Assembly: GCA_963803805.1 (NCBI GenBank)
Contig: CAWDOD010000002.1
Coordinates: 480,001 to 544,000 of the forward strand
Source of the DNA: an uncultured cyanobacterium
GTDB taxonomy: Bacteria > Cyanobacteriota > Cyanobacteriia > Cyanobacteriales > CAWCAG01
Direction of reading: 5' to 3'
DNA: 64,000 bases
Position 1 is the first letter of the stretch, and each line of letters opens with the position of its first letter. Below, piece after piece: positions 23,520 to 44,228 of this stretch. The notes beneath the pieces are model-generated. The model did not search any database. It saw only the letters and a list, made by a program, of their open reading frames with translations, and was not told the origin of the DNA. The translations under genes and the position numbers were made by a program.

Positions 23520-25619
23520 ATGGAACTAAGCGAGAACCAATCTAGGTCGTTGAATTGGCGCGGAGAAAGTGCCTTAGCTGCCATTGTTTTCACAGATGTG
23601 GAGTCTTTTACTCCGATCATGGCAGCGGATGAAAAGCACGCTTTGGCCTTGATACAGAGAGATTTTCAATTAATGGCTCGCTTTTGCGAACAATGGGAAG
23701 GACAAGTACTCAAATACTTGGGAGATGGTATGTTGATGTACTTTGTTAGCGCCGAAAAAGCTGTAGATTGTGCCATTGAAATTCAAAAAGAGTTAGTAAC
23801 CACAGCAACTACTTTAGAAAAGAAAGATATTTTAACCCATCGCATCGGTATACATTTGGGAGATGTCTTCTTTAATGGTCAAGATGTCATGGGAAAAGGG
23901 GTTAATATGGCTTCTCGGTTAGAAGGACAATCTCAACCTGGAGGAATTTGTATTTCCCACACAGTTTATGAAGTGGTTAAAAATCGCCTCCAAGCCCCTA
24001 TTACCTATGCAGGGATGAGGAAATTAAAAGGTATCCGTGAACCTGCCCCTATTTATTTAATCCCCCCACCACGCCAAAAAATAGAAACAAAAACCAGGAT
24101 ATTTATAAGTTATCGTAGCCAAGAACCAGATTTAAGCCTTGCCCAGGAGTTTTACCATACTTTGATTAAAGCTGATTATGAAGCTTTTATGGCAGGGGAA
24201 AGTATTCGTTTAGGGGAAAGGTGGGCCCAAAGAATTGAAGATGAATTAAAATGCTGTGATTATTTACTACTACTTCTTTCTGAACAATCTGCTGCCAGCG
24301 AGATGGTGACAGAAGAGATTCGCCGGGCGAAGGAATTACATAACCTTAATTCCGATGGTAAGCCTTATATTTTACCCATTAGGGTTAAATTTCCCATGAG
24401 TTCACCTTTGAATTACAACCTCAAAGGTTATTTAGATAAGATTCAACAAAGAGAATGGAATTCAGAGGCTGATACTTCTCGGTTAGTGCAAGAAGTCCTG
24501 GATTTAATTCATTCTGGAAAACCACTAGAACAGCCAGAGGAAAATACTTCCCAAGCTTATGAAACTAATTGGGAAAATTCTGATCTTCCTCCTTTACCCA
24601 TAGCTGTCCCTGAATTACCCGATGGGCAAGTAGATGTCGCTTCGGTATTTTATGTTGAACGCCCTCCCATTGAAGATCGGGCCATAGAAACAGTTATTCA
24701 AGCTGGTTCTTTAATCCGGATTAAAGCCCCCAGGCAAATGGGCAAAACTTCCTTAATGGCGAGAATATTGCACCATGCCAAGCAACAAGGTTATTGTGCT
24801 GTCCCCTTAAGCTTTCAGCTAGCCGATGGTAAGATATTTCAAGATTTAGACCGTTTCTTGCGTTGGTTTTGCGCTAGCGTGGGTAGGAGGTTACGCTTAC
24901 CCAATCAGCTTAACGATTATTGGGATGAAATTTTTGGCAGCAAGGATAACTGCACAGCCTATTTTGAAGAATATCTCCTAGAAAATCTTGATGCCCCTCT
25001 GGTTTTAGGTTTGGATGAAGTAGATTGTATTTTCAGATATCCAGAAATCGCCACAGACTTTTTTGGCTTATTGCGGGCTTGGCATGAAGAAGCCAAAAAT
25101 CGCGATATTTGGAAAAAGTTACGCTTAGTGGTAGTACATTCCACAGAAGTTTATGTACCTATGGATGTCAACCAATCCCCTTTTAACGTTGGGCTACCAT
25201 TGGAATTACCAGAATTTACCCCAGAACAAGTTTGTGAACTATCTCGTTTACACGGTTTAGATTGGCAAAAGCCACAAATTATGGAACTGATGAACTTAGT
25301 GGGGGGACATCCTTATTTAATTCGTTTGGCACTCTACCATATTGCTAGGCAAGATATTACCTTAGAAGAGTTGATGCAAGTCGCCCCTACAGAAGGTGGG
25401 TTATACAACGATCACTTGCGTCGTCATTTATGGAACTTACAACAACACCCAGAATTAGCTGGGGGGATGCAAGAGGTGGTGGAAGCTGGTACAGAATCTC
25501 TGCGTTTAGGTTCTAAGTTAGCTTTCAAATTACATAGTATGGGCTTAGTTAGTTTCCAAGGCAATGAAGTTAAACCAAGGTGTAATTTATATCAGCAATA
25601 TTTTCAAGAAAGACTTTAG
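23520..25619 (+). CDS. Class III nucleotide cyclase + TIR + AAA_35 (STAND-like) ATPase fusion
   Basis: FTDV/KYLGDG/RIGIHLG/VNMASRLE; IFISY...SEMVTEEI; APRQMGKTS, LDEVD and GGHPYL. Confidence 0.85.
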   Translation: MELSENQSRSLNWRGESALAAIVFTDVESFTPIMAADEKHALALIQRDFQLMARFCEQWEGQVLKYLGDGMLMYFVSAEKAVDCAIEIQKELVTTATTLEKKDILTHRIGIHLGDVFFNGQDVMGKGVNMASRLEGQSQPGGICISHTVYEVVKNRLQAPITYAGMRKLKGIREPAPIYLIPPPRQKIETKTRIFISYRSQEPDLSLAQEFYHTLIKADYEAFMAGESIRLGERWAQRIEDELKCCDYLLLLLSEQSAASEMVTEEIRRAKELHNLNSDGKPYILPIRVKFPMSSPLNYNLKGYLDKIQQREWNSEADTSRLVQEVLDLIHSGKPLEQPEENTSQAYETNWENSDLPPLPIAVPELPDGQVDVASVFYVERPPIEDRAIETVIQAGSLIRIKAPRQMGKTSLMARILHHAKQQGYCAVPLSFQLADGKIFQDLDRFLRWFCASVGRRLRLPNQLNDYWDEIFGSKDNCTAYFEEYLLENLDAPLVLGLDEVDCIFRYPEIATDFFGLLRAWHEEAKNRDIWKKLRLVVVHSTEVYVPMDVNQSPFNVGLPLELPEFTPEQVCELSRLHGLDWQKPQIMELMNLVGGHPYLIRLALYHIARQDITLEELMQVAPTEGGLYNDHLRRHLWNLQQHPELAGGMQEVVEAGTESLRLGSKLAFKLHSMGLVSFQGNEVKPRCNLYQQYFQERL

Positions 25620-26971: not shown

Positions 26972-27646
26972 TTAATCTGTTAACCTCTTTCTTGCCCCAT
27001 CCAAAGCAGTAGTCGGATTAACTGCCACCCAACCACTAGGAGTTAATTGTCGCCACTCAAAATGGAGATGGGGAAGACTGCTTTTTCCTGTCGTTCCTAC
27101 TAAACCAATCACTTGCCCTTGTTCAACTTGCTCTCCTGATTGTACTAAGATTTTGTCAAGGTGAGCATATTGAGATTCTTGACTATCTTTCTCGTGACGC
27201 AATACCACAGTTAAACCAAATTGATCTGCGTAAGCGGCGATCGCAACTGTACCAGGATAAGCAGCAATAACAGGAGTACCAACGGGGGCTGATAAGTCTG
27301 CACCTGTATTAAATTCATTCGCTTTGGTAACAGGGTTAGTACCCCAACCGAAAGGTACAGTAGTTGGGGCGGCGATGGCTAAAGGAAATTGTAAGGGCAG
27401 GTTATTATTACCCAACTGTCCTTGAGAATCAACTTTGGGTTGGTAATTCTCCACACTACCTTGAAACCCCGGTAAAGGATTAGAATACCTGCGCCCTCGG
27501 TTAACTCGAATACCTTCAGTTTCTGGTCTAGGGGTTTGTGCCTGAGCTAAATTTGTTTGGTATAACTCAATTAAACTACTACCTGCGATCGCTAAGCTAA
27601 CAACTAAGGTAATGCTAGAGATTATCAAATAACGTTTGGGAAACAT
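26972..27646 (-). CDS. M23-family peptidase-like protein (first Zn ligand His replaced by Asn)
   Basis: FNTGADL, YAHL, GQVIGLVG and PHLHFE motifs. Confidence 0.85.
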   Translation of the reverse strand: MFPKRYLIISSITLVVSLAIAGSSLIELYQTNLAQAQTPRPETEGIRVNRGRRYSNPLPGFQGSVENYQPKVDSQGQLGNNNLPLQFPLAIAAPTTVPFGWGTNPVTKANEFNTGADLSAPVGTPVIAAYPGTVAIAAYADQFGLTVVLRHEKDSQESQYAHLDKILVQSGEQVEQGQVIGLVGTTGKSSLPHLHFEWRQLTPSGWVAVNPTTALDGARKRLTD

Positions 27647-27860
27647 AAGTCAAAAGTCAAAAGTTAAAATCATTATGACTTATTCCCTACCCCCTTACTC
27701 CGTCCGCACTTTTAATAGCAGTTAGCAATTATCAATCTAGCTTTTGCGTGTTAATACTGAATCAATCTGCTATTCTGTAAATATAGTTAGTGCATATAAT
27801 GAGATGAGGTATCTATCTTCCGAATGAGAATATCAACATTCGTCAAGTTTAACTAAAATT

Positions 27861-29207
27861 ATGAACGACCAAGCCCTGAAACAAGCATTACTGAATTTAC
27901 CAAACCAGGAAAAAGAAGCAGTTGTCAACGACGTTTTTGTCCCAGATTTACTAAATGCTCTTGGTTTTGAGCTTATGGAGCGCATCCCCCAGTTTGCTAC
28001 AGGAAGGGGAAATGATGCAGTCGATTATGCCCTACGTCATAATACTCAGGATGATATCTTTCTCCAAACTAAAGCTAATCCTTCTGTGTTACTTGAACTA
28101 AAAGGTAGAGATATTAATCTTACTGAAGGTTCTTCTCAATATAAATCTACGGTTAAACAAATTCGTCGCTATTTATTATCGCCAAATTGTAAAAGCGTGC
28201 AGTGGGGAATCATTACTAACTCGGCTCATATTCAAGTTTTTAGAAAGCACGGCAAGGTTATTTATCCTGCTACCCAATGTCTAGAAATCACCACGGATAA
28301 TGTTGGTGAGATTGTCCAAAAGGTTGCCAATCAAATCCAAAATACTCCCAGAGCATTAACGGTAGCAGTTTATAACAATAAAGGAGGCGTAGGCAAAACC
28401 ACAACCACAGTGAATCTTGCTTCAATTCTTACTTTGAAGGGGAAGAAAGTTTTAGTTGTTGATTTTGATCCTAACCAACAAGATTTAACTAATTCACTAG
28501 GTGTAAAACCAGGAAAAGTAACTTTTTATTCTTGTTTAGAAGACAAAAAGAATCAAGTTCCCTTTGAGGAGGTGATGCGTCCTTATAAAATTCATTTCAA
28601 AAAGCTCAATAAGGATTTTGTTTTTGATGTTATTCCGGCTAACGAAGAATTTTCAAACATGGGAGAAGATGATTTAAGGAAAAATCTTAAGCGTTTTCGA
28701 TTGCGTCAGTTTCTAGGTAGTTTGAAATCACAATACGACTATATCTTAATTGATTCGCCTCCAAATTGGAGGTTTTTTAGTATTAGCGCAATCTATGCAG
28801 CAGATGTGGTTTTTATACCCACCAAACACAACAACATTTTTTCATTAGAAAATGCTGCTATAGCTATCAGTAAATATATTTCAGACGTGCAAGAAAAGCG
28901 TAAAGATGGAGGGCCGATTGCCCTACCGATTTTCTTCAATGGTGAAAAGATTAGTGATGCGGCTAGAAATACAGCCAACAAAGCAATACAAAATATCATT
29001 CAAAAAGCCAAAAAAGAGGATAAATTTGATTTGCTTCCCTATTTTTATCCCCGTTATACTTCCGCTAAAAAAGACCTTCACATTTTCGACGTACCAAGCT
29101 ACGCTCATATAGCTGATGCCGCCTTTTCCCGTATCCCAGCTACCTACAAAAATAAAACCGCACGGGATTATTACTTAAGCTTAGCCAAGGAGTATTTTTT
29201 ACAATGA
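27861..29207 (+). CDS. Restriction-endonuclease-like (HsdR_N-type) domain fused to a ParA/Soj ATPase
   Basis: LLNALGF...VDYAL...LLELK...QIRRYL...GIITN; deviant Walker A KGGVGKTT, VDFDPN and ILIDSPP. Confidence 0.82.
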   Translation: MNDQALKQALLNLPNQEKEAVVNDVFVPDLLNALGFELMERIPQFATGRGNDAVDYALRHNTQDDIFLQTKANPSVLLELKGRDINLTEGSSQYKSTVKQIRRYLLSPNCKSVQWGIITNSAHIQVFRKHGKVIYPATQCLEITTDNVGEIVQKVANQIQNTPRALTVAVYNNKGGVGKTTTTVNLASILTLKGKKVLVVDFDPNQQDLTNSLGVKPGKVTFYSCLEDKKNQVPFEEVMRPYKIHFKKLNKDFVFDVIPANEEFSNMGEDDLRKNLKRFRLRQFLGSLKSQYDYILIDSPPNWRFFSISAIYAADVVFIPTKHNNIFSLENAAIAISKYISDVQEKRKDGGPIALPIFFNGEKISDAARNTANKAIQNIIQKAKKEDKFDLLPYFYPRYTSAKKDLHIFDVPSYAHIADAAFSRIPATYKNKTARDYYLSLAKEYFLQ

Positions 29208-29887
29208 GTAACTTAAGCGATATTGGGAACTTAATGTACCTGTATCTAGAAGAAATCGAACCGGGTGAGGGGACAGATGCACCAGAATTTCTAATCAAAG
29301 CTACAGCCAAAACTCTCAGCGATTTTGGGGGGCGAAATTGGCTTCCTTTAATTGTTAAAGAAACTGGGGAAGATAGTTATGAAGCGATCGCCAACTTATT
29401 TATCTATGCGGTGGCAGAAGAAGCAGGTTTAGAAAAGGTTTGGTGTATTATTGCTGATGATAGCAAAGAAACTGCTCAATTAGCTAAAACCTTAGCTGGG
29501 GAAGTGATCCCCAAAATAAACCTTTCTACAGCTAGCCGTGATGAAATTCAAGCAACCCTACAATATTTAATTGAAAAACCTGGTAGCCCTCTCAAAGGGG
29601 TGAAACTTTCTGTAGCCACAAACCGCATTGATGAAGCCCCCCGGCAATATTGGCAAAACTTCAACGAAATTACCAAACTCCAATGTGGTATCACCAGGGG
29701 GAAAAAACTTGATACCCTCAAAGAAGTTTTTGAACTCACTCCCCAGCCCATGCCTGATGTAATCAAAGATCCAGCAATCTTAACCACCATGACTACAAAA
29801 GACTTAAAAACCATGGCCAAAAAGCGAGGAATGTCTGGCTACAGCAAAAAGAAAAAAGGCGAATTAGTGGAGTTACTCAGCCAGTAG
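29204..29887 (+). CDS. ParB/Srx-like domain + HhH-like domain + Rho N-terminal domain protein
   Basis: GRNWLPLIVKE..YEAIAN..AEEAGLEKVWCII; KINLSTASRDEI...; MTTKDLKTMAKKRGMSGYSKKKKGELVELL; ATGA overlap with the upstream stop. Confidence 0.7.
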   Translation: MSNLSDIGNLMYLYLEEIEPGEGTDAPEFLIKATAKTLSDFGGRNWLPLIVKETGEDSYEAIANLFIYAVAEEAGLEKVWCIIADDSKETAQLAKTLAGEVIPKINLSTASRDEIQATLQYLIEKPGSPLKGVKLSVATNRIDEAPRQYWQNFNEITKLQCGITRGKKLDTLKEVFELTPQPMPDVIKDPAILTTMTTKDLKTMAKKRGMSGYSKKKKGELVELLSQ

Positions 29888-30255
29888 GCGTAGACAAAAC
29901 CCGCCGTTAGGCATCGCGCCACAAAAAACTGTCGCCTATTGCACTCTTTGCCTGTTGCCTTTGCCCTAACATTAGTAGCCTGTAAGACTAACATAAACTT
30001 CGGCTTAGAAAATCATTAAACTTTAGGCATATTTGCTCATATAGCAATTAACTTTAAAAAAGGCCAAACTAGAGTACATTCATTAATTGTCAATAGTTAC
30101 TAACTGAGCGAACATCAAAATTTTCTTGGCTGGGGTCATAAAAAAAGGAGCAACTACCAAAGGTTTTGATCTGGTTGTCTGCCATGAAGTCAATATTACT
30201 GATTGCTTCTGACGCAATCTGACAGGATGCCTGCTGCAACAGGAGGCTAAAACTA

Positions 30256-32839
30256 ATGACCAACAGAGATAGTCTTTATAGAATAGAACAGGAGACACTT
30301 GTGAATCAAAAAACCAACCTCGTAAAACCCATCAATATTCAAGTAGAAGATGACCGCACAGGCATGAGTATTGAAACTCTGAAGCGGGCTTTTGCTGATA
30401 ATCTTTTTTATATTCAAGGCAAACATGAATCCTTAGCTACTGTCAAAGACTTCTACATGGCTTTGGCTTATACTGTCCGAGATAGACTATTACAACGTTG
30501 GTTAAAAACCTCCAAAACCTATTCTGACCGAGATGCCAAGACAGTTTGTTACCTATCAGCAGAATTTTTGATGGGTCGTCATCTCGGTAACAACCTCATT
30601 AACATGGGGCTTTATGAAAAAATGCAGCAGGTTGTCGAAGAATCAGGGTTGGATCTAGAAGATTTGATGGAACAAGAAGTAGATCCTGGTTTAGGTAATG
30701 GCGGCTTAGGAAGGCTAGCAGCTTGTTTCCTCGATTCTTTGGCTGCTTTGGAAATTCCTGCCATTGGTTATGGCATTCGCTACGAGTTTGGTATCTTTCA
30801 CCAAATTATTCAAGATGGTTGGCAAGTAGAAATTCCTGATAAATGGTTGCGTTTTACCAACCCTTGGGAAATTGCCCGTCCTGAAGATACCGTAGAGGTT
30901 CAATTTGGTGGCTACACAGAAACCTACTGTTCTAAAAAAGGACATTATCGTGTATCTTGGGTTCCTGAACGGACAGTTATAGCTGTCCCTTATGATACTC
31001 CTGTACCTGGTTACAACACCAATACTGTCAATCCCCTCCGGCTTTGGAAAGCAGAAGCTAGTGACGAATTTAACTTCGATGCTTTCAATGCCGGTAACTA
31101 TGACCACGCTGTTTCCGATAAGATGACCTCAGAGACAATCTCTAAAGTCCTTTATCCTAACGACAACACTCCCCAAGGACGGCAGTTACGTTTAGAACAA
31201 CAATTCTTCTTCGTCTCCGCCTCCTTACAGGATATTATTCGTAATCACCTACGCCATAACAACAACTTACATAACCTCCACGAAAGAGTTGCTATTCAAT
31301 TAAACGATACTCACCCAGCAGTCAGTATTGCTGAATTGATGCGTTTACTAATAGATGTACATGAGTTGCATTGGGATACAGCTTGGGAAATTACCCAACA
31401 AACTTTTGCCTATACTAACCATACTCTCCTCCCTGAAGCCCTGGAGCGCTGGCCTGTCAGCTTGTTTGAAAGCTTGTTGCCCAGGCATTTAGAAATTATT
31501 TATGAAATAAATCATCGCTTCATGGAAGATATCCACACTTGGTATCCTGGAGATGATGCACGGGCAAGCCGACTCTCAATTATTGAAGAGTCAGGGGGGA
31601 AATCCATCCGTATGGCTAACTTAGCTTGTGTGGGCAGCCACGCCGTTAATGGAGTTGCAGCACTTCATACCAAATTGCTGAAGCAAGATACCTTAAGAGA
31701 TTTTGCTGGAACTATGGCCAGAAAAATTCTTCAACATGACCAATGGTGTTACTCCCCGTCGTTGGATATTGTTAAGTAACCCTAAACTAGCGACCTTAAT
31801 TACGGAAAAAATTGGTGATGGTTGGCTAACTAATTTAGATAAACTCGAAAAATTAGCAGCCTTTATTGATGATGCTGAATTTTGTGAGCGCTGGCGAGAA
31901 ATTAAGCTAGAAAATAAGCGCAAGCTAGCTAGTTACATTTGGAAACAAAAAGGTCTGCGGGTAGATCCTGATTCCATCTTTGATGTCTTAGTTAAGCGCC
32001 TCCACGAATATAAGCGCCAACTTCTTGATGTACTGCACGTCATCACTCTCTACAACCGCATCAAGAAAAATCCCAACATTGATATTCAACCCCGAACTTT
32101 TATTTTCGGAGGCAAAGCGGCCCCCGGTTACTTCACTGCCAAACTGATTATTAAACTAATCAACTCCGTAGCAGAAGTAGTCAACAAAGATCCTGATGTC
32201 AGGGGTCGTTTAAAGGTCGTTTTTGTAGCCAATTTTAGCGTCTCCCTTGGTCAGAAAATTTATCCGGCAGCAGACCTTTCTGAGCAAATTTCCACAGCCG
32301 GTAAAGAAGCTTCTGGTACAGGTAACATGAAGTTTGCTATGAATGGCGCACTCACTATTGGTACATTAGATGGGGCGAATATCGAGATCCGGGAAGAAGC
32401 GGGTGCAGAAAACTTCTTCCTCTTTGGTTTAACGGCTGCTGAAGTACAAGAGATGAAAGCCAAAGGTTATGAACCCATGCACTACTACAGACGTAACCTT
32501 GAACTAAAAGCTGTCATTGACCGCATCTCCTCTGGCTACTTCTCCCATGGAGATACCAATCTCTTTAAGCCCCTTGTAGACTCTTTACTCTATGACGACC
32601 AATATATGCTGATGGTAGACTACCAATCTTACCTTGACTGTCAAGAACAGGTTAGTGAAGTTTATCAAGATAAAGATAAATGGACAAAGATGTCTATCCT
32701 CAACTCTGCTAACATGGGCAAATTCTCTTCTGACCGCACAATTCGAGAATATTGTCAGGATATTTGGCAAGTTAAGCCAGTGAAAATTGAGTTAGATAAG
32801 TATGTGCAGGATAATGCTGCTTTGAACGTCAATACTTAA
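30256..32839 (+). CDS. glgP: Glycogen phosphorylase, split by one extra G at about 31708
   Basis: [29 protein letters not shown] and EASGTGNMK; removing one G restores DFAELWP. Confidence 0.93.
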
Positions 32840-43114: not shown

Positions 43115-44228
43115 ATGGACATATCAGAACTCAAGCGAGGATTAGAAAATACGGCTGAGCGCCTGGGTAAAACCCAGGAGTATCTTTGACTTAGCCGCTT
43201 TGCAAGCTAAGATTAAAGACTTAGAACAATTAGCAGCACAACCAGAATTTTGGGACGAGCAAACTAAAGCCCAACAAATATTACAGGAACTCAACGATCT
43301 TAAATCGGGTTTAGAACAATATCAGAAATGGCAAAGTGCTTGGGAAGATAGCGAAGCGATCGCTGAGTTATTAGAATTAGAAGTTGATGAAACCTTGTTA
43401 CGAGAAGCCCTAAACTCCCTTAATAAGATTAATCAAGAGTTAGACCGTTGGGAACTGCAACAACTCCTATCTGCCCCCTATGATAGCCAGGGTGCAGTGT
43501 TAACCATCAATGCGGGGGCTGGGGGAACAGATGCCCAAGACTGGGCGGAAATGTTGTTGCGGATGTATACCCGTTGGGCAGAACAACAGGGTTATAAAGT
43601 AACCTTAGCTGAACAGTCTGATGGGGAGGAAGCAGGCATTAAATCAGCTACATTAGAAATTAGTGGTCGTTACGGCTATGGTTATTTAAAAGCAGAAAAA
43701 GGGACTCATCGCTTGGTCAGAATTTCTCCTTTTAATGCTAATGGTAAGCGTCAAACTAGCTTTGCTGGGGTAGAAGTGATGCCTAGTTTAGATAACAAAG
43801 CTATTGAGTTAGAAATCCCGGAAAAAGACTTAGATGTTAATACTTCTCGTGCCGGAGGGAAAGGAGGACAAAATGTCAACAAAGTAGAAACAGCAGTACG
43901 AATAACTCATATTCCTACCGGTATTGCTGTACGTTGTACCCAAGAACGTTCTCAACTACAAAATAAAGAAAAAGCCCTCGCTTTATTAAAAGCAAAGTTA
44001 TTAGTTATTGCTCAAGAACAAAGGGCCCAAAAAATTGCTGAGATTCGTGGTGATATGGTAGAAGCAGCTTGGGGAAATCAAATTCGCAATTATGTTTTTC
44101 ACCCCTACCAAATGGTAAAAGACCTGCGTACCAATGTAGAAACTACTGCTATAGATACGGTTATGGACGGAGACATTGATACTTTTATTGAAGCTTATTT
44201 ACGCCAAGAGAATCAGTTAGGAAACTGA
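43115..44228 (+). CDS. prfB: Peptide chain release factor 2 with programmed +1 frameshift
   Basis: ATG 43115, 24 codons, then CAGGAG-TAT-CTT-TGA-C at 43175-43190; SPF and GGQ motifs downstream. Confidence 0.97.

Follow-up and report, generated by a model that had tools for sequence, protein, structure and literature searches.

Two overlapping genes in the genome of an uncultured cyanobacterium encode a nuclease-ParA fusion protein (gene 1) and an arginine-less ParB-like protein (gene 2). They lie in a 64,000-nucleotide stretch of contig CAWDOD010000002.1 (positions 480,001 to 544,000), hereafter the window, whose own numbering is used throughout. The pair very probably represents the effector-ParAB module in an intact, chromosomal form. 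This module was named in a computational preprint by Li, Burroughs and Aravind (bioRxiv, 22 October 2026; 10.64898/2026.10.19.760177). An earlier reading of the window, made from its letters (the sequence-only reading), had presented the pair as a candidate undescribed defence or DNA-processing system. Since the preprint already covers the architecture and the taxon and puts forward the defence hypothesis, the finding is a rediscovery of a known kind of system with a predicted function, and the word "undescribed" has to be withdrawn. What is added here is the confirmation of the effector swap within cyanobacteria, the narrowness of the nuclease-head family, and observations on plasmid backbones and repeat arrays. 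The nuclease-ParA/ParB-like module is common in cyanobacteria and intact in the window, and the roles discussed for it are predictions from sequences and models. We assign a probability of about 0.5 to a role in conflict, in which the pair would act on the replicon DNA of phages or plasmids or, as a last resort, on the cell's own DNA. This is the best single reading because the effector has been swapped, the catalytic residues are conserved, the ParB-like protein appears to be dead, and a separate housekeeping parAB operon is present.

Gene 1 encodes a predicted nuclease fused to a ParA ATPase

Pfam comparison placed AAA_31 on residues 167–346 of the gene 1 product (1.4e-34), and HSDR_N (4.7e-4) and HSDR_N_2 (7.5e-4) on residues 48–129, the latter two below the cut-off for a single protein. 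Among 42 relatives of gene 1, HSDR_N_2 was matched in 35 and HSDR_N in 18 (E ≤ 0.01; best, 1.2e-6), and the sub-threshold matches were taken as real because most family members match HSDR_N_2. An AlphaFold model built from the family alignment (pLDDT 88.9, pTM 0.91) was compared to representative structures. Residues 2–163 resembled the endonuclease domain of BpuSI (3s1s_A; Z 12.6, root-mean-square deviation (rmsd) 3.2, 145 residues aligned), and residues 163–448 resembled ParA (8ray_A, Z 27.1) and McdA (6noo_A, Z 25.6), with a Foldseek E value of about 1e-14 to Soj/ParA. A sequence search of solved structures with the N-terminal domain gave no match at E ≤ 10.

In the alignment of the 42 sequences, D55, E79 and K81 were invariant, and Q100 and Y104 were conserved in at least 90%. 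In the model, one strand carries D55, the strand after it carries E79 and K81 at its end, and the helix that comes next contains Q100 and Y104. The conservation of these D/ExK/QxxxY residues indicates that catalysis is probably under selection. In the deviant Walker A motif, K174, G175, G176, V177, G178, T180 and T181 were invariant and K179 was conserved in at least 90%; D201, D203, Q206 and D298 of the ATPase domain were also invariant. An intact PD-(D/E)xK nuclease domain fused to an intact ParA ATPase, as proposed in the sequence-only reading, is thus confirmed at the level of sequence and model.

Full-length homologues of gene 1 were cyanobacterial and shared 56–82% identity with it among the matches listed, which numbered at least 120. 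The nuclease head forms a narrow family: a phmmer search of 1.84 billion proteins retrieved 99 cluster representatives at E ≤ 1e-3, comprising 29 of 440–500 amino acids (aa) in which the domain is N-terminal, 9 longer and 61 shorter, many of the last being probably fragments.

Gene 2 encodes a ParB-like protein without the arginine box

The start codon of gene 2 shares an ATGA with the stop codon of gene 1 (29204–29207), and the overlap of the two open reading frames (ORFs) was found where it had been described. In the gene 2 product, Pfam detected Rho_N above the cut-off (5.3e-6; 26.7 bits vs. 24.9) and ParB_N below it (0.017; 15.6 bits vs. 26.3). Searching the sequences of solved structures with a gene 2 profile yielded matches at chance level (E ≥ 0.1). 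The structural model (pLDDT 87.9) resolved into three modules. Residues 5–102 matched the ParB/Srx fold (PadC 6ryk_B, Z 10.7, rmsd 2.3; KorB, Z 9.2; sulfiredoxin, Z 8.8; ParB 7bnk_B by Foldseek, E 7.5e-6). Residues 102–180 matched ComEA (8dss_B, Z 6.8, rmsd 2.0, 61 aligned) and further (HhH)2 structures (2duy_A, Z 6.5; Tex 3bzc_A, Z 5.7); Z scores of this order are moderate, and together with the sequence motif they support the HhH assignment with moderate confidence. Residues 188–227 matched the HeH domain of Rho (1a62_A, Z 6.2, rmsd 1.2, 40 aligned), as well as SAP and LEM domains. The ParB/Srx-like fold, the ComEA-like HhH segment and the Rho-N domain of the earlier reading therefore all withstood structural comparison.

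Alignment by hhalign to the canonical ParB encoded elsewhere in the same genome placed A-N-L-F-I-Y opposite A-G-E-R-R-Y. This alignment is weak (E 0.0098), and the mapping of box II that it gives accords with the Pfam match and with the fold. The G-E-R-R of ParB is replaced by N-(S/L)-F-I in the gene 2 family, and none of its 77 members has an arginine in the GxRR-equivalent columns. The N-terminus of canonical type I ParB bears a basic peptide that activates ParA. No K or R occurs among the first 31 residues of the window gene 2 product, no basic column is conserved over the first 31 positions of the family, and 35 of the 77 members have no basic residue there. From sequence and model, the ParB-like partner appears to have lost the CTP-binding arginine box, with HhH and HeH modules replacing the HTH and dimerisation domains of ParB. 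Among the matches listed (at least 120), homologues of gene 2 showed 59–90% identity.

The two genes are strictly coupled and patchily distributed

Seventy-eight loci were collected by way of gene 2. A gene 1 homologue was located directly upstream of gene 2 in 76 of these loci, and the remaining two contained no upstream DNA. The matches to the two genes were within 31 nucleotides (nt) of each other in 71 of the 76 loci, and the other five showed gaps of 175–683 nt or partial gene 1 matches. No third gene was conserved with the pair; among the other neighbour clusters, the most frequent was present in 7 of 79 loci. Adjacency on this scale bears out the earlier proposal of a coupled operon. 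Prediction of a complex between the two products gave a score of 0.09 with the mark at 0.32, which is informative in neither direction. A promoter and terminator scan of 27600–30300 detected five promoter-like and two terminator-like sites, with no excess over shuffled sequences and none usefully placed. In public run data, no RNA run was listed with the stretch; four DNA runs from one study contain all or part of it.

A sample spread evenly over the phylum contained gene 2 relatives in 59 of 401 genomes. Their occurrence was patchy among families (18/25 in f3, 10/20 in f7 and 8/45 in f6) and within genera (2/9 in g14, 2/5 in g8 and 1/5 in g11), and twelve families totalling 225 genomes yielded a gene 2 relative in one genome.

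The effector domain is exchanged in a distant relative

Fourteen loci with more distant gene 2 relatives were taken from the phylum sample. In all 14, an ORF of 396–496 aa with a ParA domain was located directly upstream of the gene 2 relative. The gene 1 match began within the first 17 residues in 13 of them, indicating that the nuclease domain is shared. At locus L099, which belongs to the same cyanobacterial order, an HEPN_Swt1 domain (2.7e-34, residues 10–124) is fused to ParA (AAA_31, 1e-37), and the partner is a gene 2 relative with a weak HhH end in place of Rho-N. This locus independently confirms, within cyanobacteria, the key argument of the preprint, namely the effector swap. An RNase at the position of the nuclease is hard to square with DNA partition. 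A second contig of the same genome (G002) carries a match to the REase-type (restriction endonuclease-type) gene 2.

The partner proteins of the distant loci also vary. That of L089 terminates in a SAP domain (4.5e-5) rather than Rho_N, and ORFs of 260–306 aa at L088, L091, L096, L100 and L101 match query residues of about 104–180 twice, indicating that the HhH module has been duplicated in tandem. The features of the pair and of the HEPN variant are listed in Table 1.

Table 1. Coordinates of the gene pair and its domains in the window, and of the HEPN variant at L099
Feature	Position	Strand	Basis
Gene 1, REase-ParA fusion protein, intact, 448 aa	27861..29207	+	ORF, Pfam, homologues, model
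Predicted PD-(D/E)xK (HsdR_N-type restriction endonuclease fold) N-terminal domain, residues 1–165	27861..28355	+	Structural match to BpuSI
Putative catalytic codons D55, E79, K81	28023-28025, 28095-28097, 28101-28103	+	
ParA/Soj-type ATPase domain, residues 166–448	28356..29204	+	Structural match to ParA
Deviant Walker A, K174-T181 (KGGVGKTT)	28380-28403	+	
Gene 2, arginine-less ParB-like protein, 227 aa	29204..29887	+	ORF, homologues, model
ParB/Srx-fold domain, residues 1–102; N-L-F-I in place of G-E-R-R	29204..29509	+	Structural matches, hhalign
Predicted ComEA-like (HhH)2 domain, residues 103–180, motif KINLSTASRDEI	29510..29743	+	Structural matches, moderate Z
Rho-N/SAP/LEM-type HeH domain, residues 188–227	29765..29884	+	Pfam Rho_N, structural matches
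HEPN_Swt1-ParA fusion (453 aa), followed by a 226-aa gene 2 relative	L099:3119-5129	+	

Relation to known systems

As described in the portion of the preprint available to us, effector-ParAB systems contain a ConB1-clade ParA with a Walker A valine marker, operonic with a ParB judged inactive. The effectors are N-terminal to ParA and are most commonly REases, with HEPN, caspase, TOPRIM and phosphoesterase domains also occurring, and the ParB domain is followed by an HhH or a Rho-N HeH domain that replaces the HTH. The systems are reported to be over-represented in taxa with a multicellular habit, cyanobacteria among them. In the model proposed by the authors, ParB spots invader DNA and ParA coats it, with the effector as a second line of defence, an immune role that is predicted from computation and context (10.64898/2026.10.19.760177).

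No architectural difference was apparent between these systems and the window pair, whose ParB-like protein bears HhH and Rho-N HeH in tandem. The Walker A valine (V177) is invariant in 42 of 42 sequences, a comparison that concerns the marker and not the authors' tree. The genes are operonic, with an ATGA overlap in the window and adjacency both in the 76 of 78 loci and in all 14 distant ones. The ParB is predicted to be inactive, given N-L-F-I against G-E-R-R in a weak alignment and the absence of arginine in all 77 members. The REase fold is directly N-terminal to ParA (Z 12.6), with effector variability represented by HEPN_Swt1 at L099. The ParB domain is followed by an HhH module (Z 6.8) and then a Rho-N HeH module (Z 6.2), and the host is a cyanobacterium. 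The preprint was the sole match found in the literature on effector-ParAB or nuclease-ParA proteins; its available portion does not discuss copies at plasmid-maintenance sites, repeat arrays, strong conservation or the absence of a defence-island context. According to the same portion, a ParA-HeH subtype with an HEPN effector has been characterised as anti-phage in Salmonella; it shares with the window pair a ConB1 ParA and an HeH-bearing partner, but as described there its partner has no ParB domain and its effector is a separate third gene (10.64898/2026.10.19.760177).

The pair also resembles type I ParABS in that a deviant Walker A ParA with a long N-terminal extension precedes a ParB-fold protein in one operon, and both occur on plasmids and chromosomes. 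In type Ia systems (P1 ParA/ParB and F SopA/SopB), the long N-terminal extension of ParA carries an HTH. In the window pair, in contrast, the extension is a predicted nuclease fold with intact catalytic residues, the ParB-like protein lacks the arginine box, the HTH, the dimerisation domain and the basic N-terminal peptide, with ParB_N under threshold, and the window copy yielded no parS. ParB, Noc, KorB and PadC (7bnk, 7ol9, 8qa8 and 6ryk) share the fold of gene 2 residues 5–102, but differ from the gene 2 family in the replaced G-E-R-R and the arginine that none of the 77 members retains. The N-terminal nucleases of type I HsdR and type IIG BpuSI share the fold and the D...ExK...QxxxY signature of gene 1, whereas gene 1 has its nuclease fused to ParA and lacks a helicase, methylase or specificity subunit.

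Two identities were considered and rejected. The type I restriction enzyme HsdR has the nuclease domain in common with gene 1, which has no SF2 helicase and no HsdM or HsdS neighbours; no methylase or specificity gene was detected among the 34 of 36 neighbouring ORFs scanned with Pfam and NCBIfam between 8 and 50 kb of the window. McdAB carboxysome positioning was considered with McdA as a structural neighbour, but gene 1 carries a nuclease, and gene 2 has a ParB fold. McdB is a small protein without a ParB fold. A 2025 PNAS survey of ParB folds probably missed the gene 2 family, because PF02195 was searched at the gathering cut-off, and no mention of the family was found in the portion of that survey available to us (PMC12704722).

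Plasmid copies and the maintenance readings

Relatives of gene 2 were found in 8 of 72,556 plasmid records, all of them cyanobacterial. Two Leptolyngbya boryana records had identical coordinates and one of these was viewed, so that seven distinct plasmid loci were examined. In all seven, a ParA of 449–480 aa was located directly upstream of the gene 2 relative; its N-terminal domain was homologous to that of the window (blastp E 1e-4 to 9e-70), and D...ExK was kept. The Pseudanabaena plasmid ABRG53g (12.5 kb) carries a CyRepA1 replication gene together with the pair, with no further ParA or ParB in its annotation. Just downstream of its gene 2 relative is a repeat array with an 8-bp period (L085:411-697, TGTAACAG-like). 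A second 8-bp-period array is located just downstream of gene 2 in Acaryochloris pREB8 (L083:7073-7822, CTGTAAGT/CGTAACT-like, at least 18 copies), and the two arrays have a GTAAC/GTAAG core in common. Such arrays may serve as centromere, iteron or self-mark sites.

On plasmids, the pair occupies the maintenance backbone, where genes for replication, resolution and partition are its neighbours. In Nostoc sp. UHCC 0870, a diverged copy is present on each of three plasmids (68%, 56% and 33% identity to gene 2), adjoining a small site-specific integrase and a recurring conserved 597-aa ORF, and one of the three also has KorA and a canonical ParA-ParB. Such siting, with three diverged copies in one strain, is a pattern typical of partition systems, and it counts against a conflict role. 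The pair could accordingly be a replicon maintenance or partition device, an unusual type Ia-like par system whose ParB-like protein binds a centromere via HhH/HeH. The N-terminal HTH extension of P1 ParA and F SopA functions in site-specific DNA binding or autoregulation; the N-terminal domain of the fusion might do likewise, or process DNA during segregation. Besides the seven plasmid loci, the Nostoc copies, ABRG53g and the arrays in two of the seven loci, this reading is favoured by the strong conservation and taxonomy-tracking tree described below and by the best partial match in NCBIfam, which was to plasmid partition RepA (1.2e-22, far under the cut-off). However, several observations are difficult to reconcile with it. 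An HEPN RNase takes the place of the nuclease at L099, the nuclease catalytic residues are strictly kept although they would be needless for mere DNA binding, and the ParB-like protein has neither the CTP box nor a conserved basic N-terminal peptide. Another small ParA is close by in four of the seven plasmid loci, and the pREB8 array, which lies between gene 2 and such a small parA, could belong to the latter. The 8-bp array was not found at the other five plasmid loci, including Nostoc plasmids unnamed4 and unnamed9, nor was any array found near the window copy (27500–30400), where there were just short two- or three-copy matches. The 77 chromosomal copies had no shared repeat motif nearby, their repeated 7-mers being mostly the HIP1 palindrome with some lineage-specific tandem repeats. 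Finally, the genome of the window already has a separate canonical operon elsewhere, with a parA of 255 aa and a parB of 306 aa (ParB_N, 7.2e-33, plus HTH_ParB). We consider a partition role unlikely, at roughly one chance in five.

The siting among plasmid maintenance genes would also suit an addiction system, in which a gene 1 nuclease toxin is restrained by gene 2 and would be released when the replicon or gene 2 is lost, post-segregational killing stabilises the plasmid, and chromosomal copies have been domesticated or serve abortive infection. The two overlapping genes are strictly coupled with no third partner, their DNase and RNase heads are interchangeable as in toxin families, and some copies look broken, as in the five loci with gaps or partial gene 1 matches. 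On the other hand, no observation points to inhibition of gene 1 by gene 2. The two proteins are large and consist of several domains each, the intact ATPase would be superfluous to a simple toxin-antitoxin pair, and high conservation across orders is atypical for such pairs. This explanation seems to us somewhat less probable than partition. A further, more speculative arrangement can be termed "armed partition": the ParB-like protein would coat the short-repeat array of its own replicon, such as the GTAAC-type 8-bp arrays of the two plasmids, and the cognate nuclease-ParA protein, travelling on DNA as an ATP-bound dimer, would cut unmarked DNA. It would account together for the diverged copies on co-resident plasmids, the retention of the catalytic residues and the missing CTP clamp, and we give it a slim chance. 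That it would enforce incompatibility or destroy rival replicons is, to the same slight degree, conceivable.

The pair is not typical of phages: it had no match in 50,697 phage records. Among IMG/VR sequences, four loci were retrieved, and the full pair was present in L102 only, where no PHROGs head, portal or tail family was detected among 12 ORFs within 5 kb. The remaining loci, L103:4311-6083, L104:4605-5675 and L105:244-747, are on phage-like contigs with portal, head or neck genes near. They encode unrelated proteins with a ParB/Srx-like domain resembling the N-terminal domain of gene 2 (35–40% identity), and carry no nuclease-ParA.

Genomic context and the case for a conflict role

The region of the window between 8 and 50 kb is ordinary chromosome, with menE, menC, a sugar kinase, DnaK, a ferredoxin, L21, prfB, surE and gnd; near the pair are genes for an M23 peptidase, a protein with a YbjN domain and a cyclase-TIR-AAA_35 protein, together with a glycogen phosphorylase gene that is split. 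These surroundings could suggest a housekeeping role in DNA transactions of cyanobacteria that are polyploid and mostly filamentous, such as the control or resolution of chromosome copies, with plasmid copies being secondary. Strong purifying selection and local synteny are consistent with this proposal: an M23 peptidase gene is the direct upstream neighbour of the pair both in the window (26972-27646, − strand) and at L059, L064, L069 and L070, and a rhomboid gene is downstream at L064, L069 and L070, the M23/rhomboid arrangement being local synteny of one lineage. Against it stand the HEPN variant, the plasmid copies and the fact that most of the genomes sampled lack the pair, also inside single genera (59 of 401 present; 8 of 45 in f6), and a purely housekeeping role is the least likely of the readings, with very little to be said for it.

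The conflict role, in turn, is supported by the catalytic residues, which are invariant in 42 of 42 relatives and retained in all seven distant plasmid paralogues, by the patchy presence within genera, and by copies on mobilizable and conjugative plasmids. In addition to the plasmid siting and the diverged Nostoc copies, the following observations weigh against it. No PADLOC match at 1e-10 was obtained for 35 of the 36 ORFs between 8 and 50 kb of the window. PADLOC models touch gene 1 only locally, at the P-loop: the PDC-M28B profile of the candidate system PDC-M28 (3.9e-9) covers residues 159–203 on positions 122–166 of its 438. Gene 2 matches no PADLOC model. No defence-island signal was seen. 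Among 137 ORFs bordering the pair in 76 other loci (Pfam at 1e-5), about 22 were mobile or conflict-type, 37 had no Pfam family, and the rest were ordinary. The mobile or conflict-type flanks were Uma2 (four), PIN (two), PemK, XisI (three), integrases (two), TnpB/IS200 (four), HNH (two), Tox-PL-2, Imm30, CHAT and VapE. This tally has no baseline, and shows no more than that obvious defence islands do not surround the pair. Conservation is unusually high for arms-race genes, with mean column identities of 79% for gene 2 (38 sequences) and 64% for gene 1 (42 sequences). The immune assignment in the preprint is itself a contextual prediction.

The phylogeny of the pair points the same way. A tree of the concatenated pair was built with 63 rows, after dropping those in which gene 1 was not full-length and a single row whose ORF had 588 aa. 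It largely tracks taxonomy: the order labels require 14 changes, compared with a minimum of 8 and a shuffled mean of 30.6, and none of 200 shuffles reached as few as observed. A single branch sets the Pleurocapsales apart from the other rows, and at least two origins are required for the Nostocales. Because related rows share labels, the tree shows clustering and is not proof of vertical descent.

Maintenance or partition and addiction roles stay live because of the plasmid-backbone siting, the diverged copies, the repeat arrays, the conservation and the lack of defence islands. The proposal of a partition-derived nuclease module for defence made in the sequence-only reading is therefore upheld in part: the preprint reaches the same reading and the HEPN swap agrees with it, but the genomic context fails to back defence. 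Its remark that no methylase, replicon or parS-like repeat is nearby is correct for the window. As regards the replicon, it does not extend to the family, in which diverged plasmid copies stand beside genes of replication, resolution and partition. On its suggestion that gene 2 acts as a sensor or antitoxin, the results speak neither for nor against.

If the pair does act in conflict, its mechanism may be envisaged as follows. The ParB-like protein would bind DNA via its HhH and HeH modules, for which the folds are what the models indicate, and, as strict operon coupling suggests, would recruit or regulate the ParA fusion. ATP would then drive formation of a ParA sandwich dimer on the DNA, consistent with the intact deviant Walker A motif and the catalytic aspartates. 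Dimerisation might pair two nuclease domains, and cutting would in this manner be gated by ATP and by the partner. Were the immune prediction true, ParA, the textbook segregation ATPase, would be the core of a widespread nuclease defence in multicellular cyanobacteria. Were the plasmid evidence the better guide, the pair would be a partition or addiction machine equipped with a nuclease, and replicons would be maintained or compete in a way that has not yet been described.

Neighbouring genes in the window

Two genes upstream of the pair, an ORF at 23520-25619 (+) encodes a 699-aa protein with a guanylate/adenylate cyclase domain, TIR_2 and AAA_35 (2e-154). This is a conflict-type architecture, yet it had no PADLOC match at 1e-10. 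Downstream, the glycogen phosphorylase gene is split into ORFs 30256-31779 and 31703-32839 (+), which match positions 2–364 and 358–713 of Pfam Phosphorylase; the split is a frameshift, reflecting either a pseudogene or an assembly error. For the prfB ORF (43200-44228, +), the match to the release factor 2 model starts only at profile position 21, as would be expected if the usual programmed frameshift site is located just upstream.

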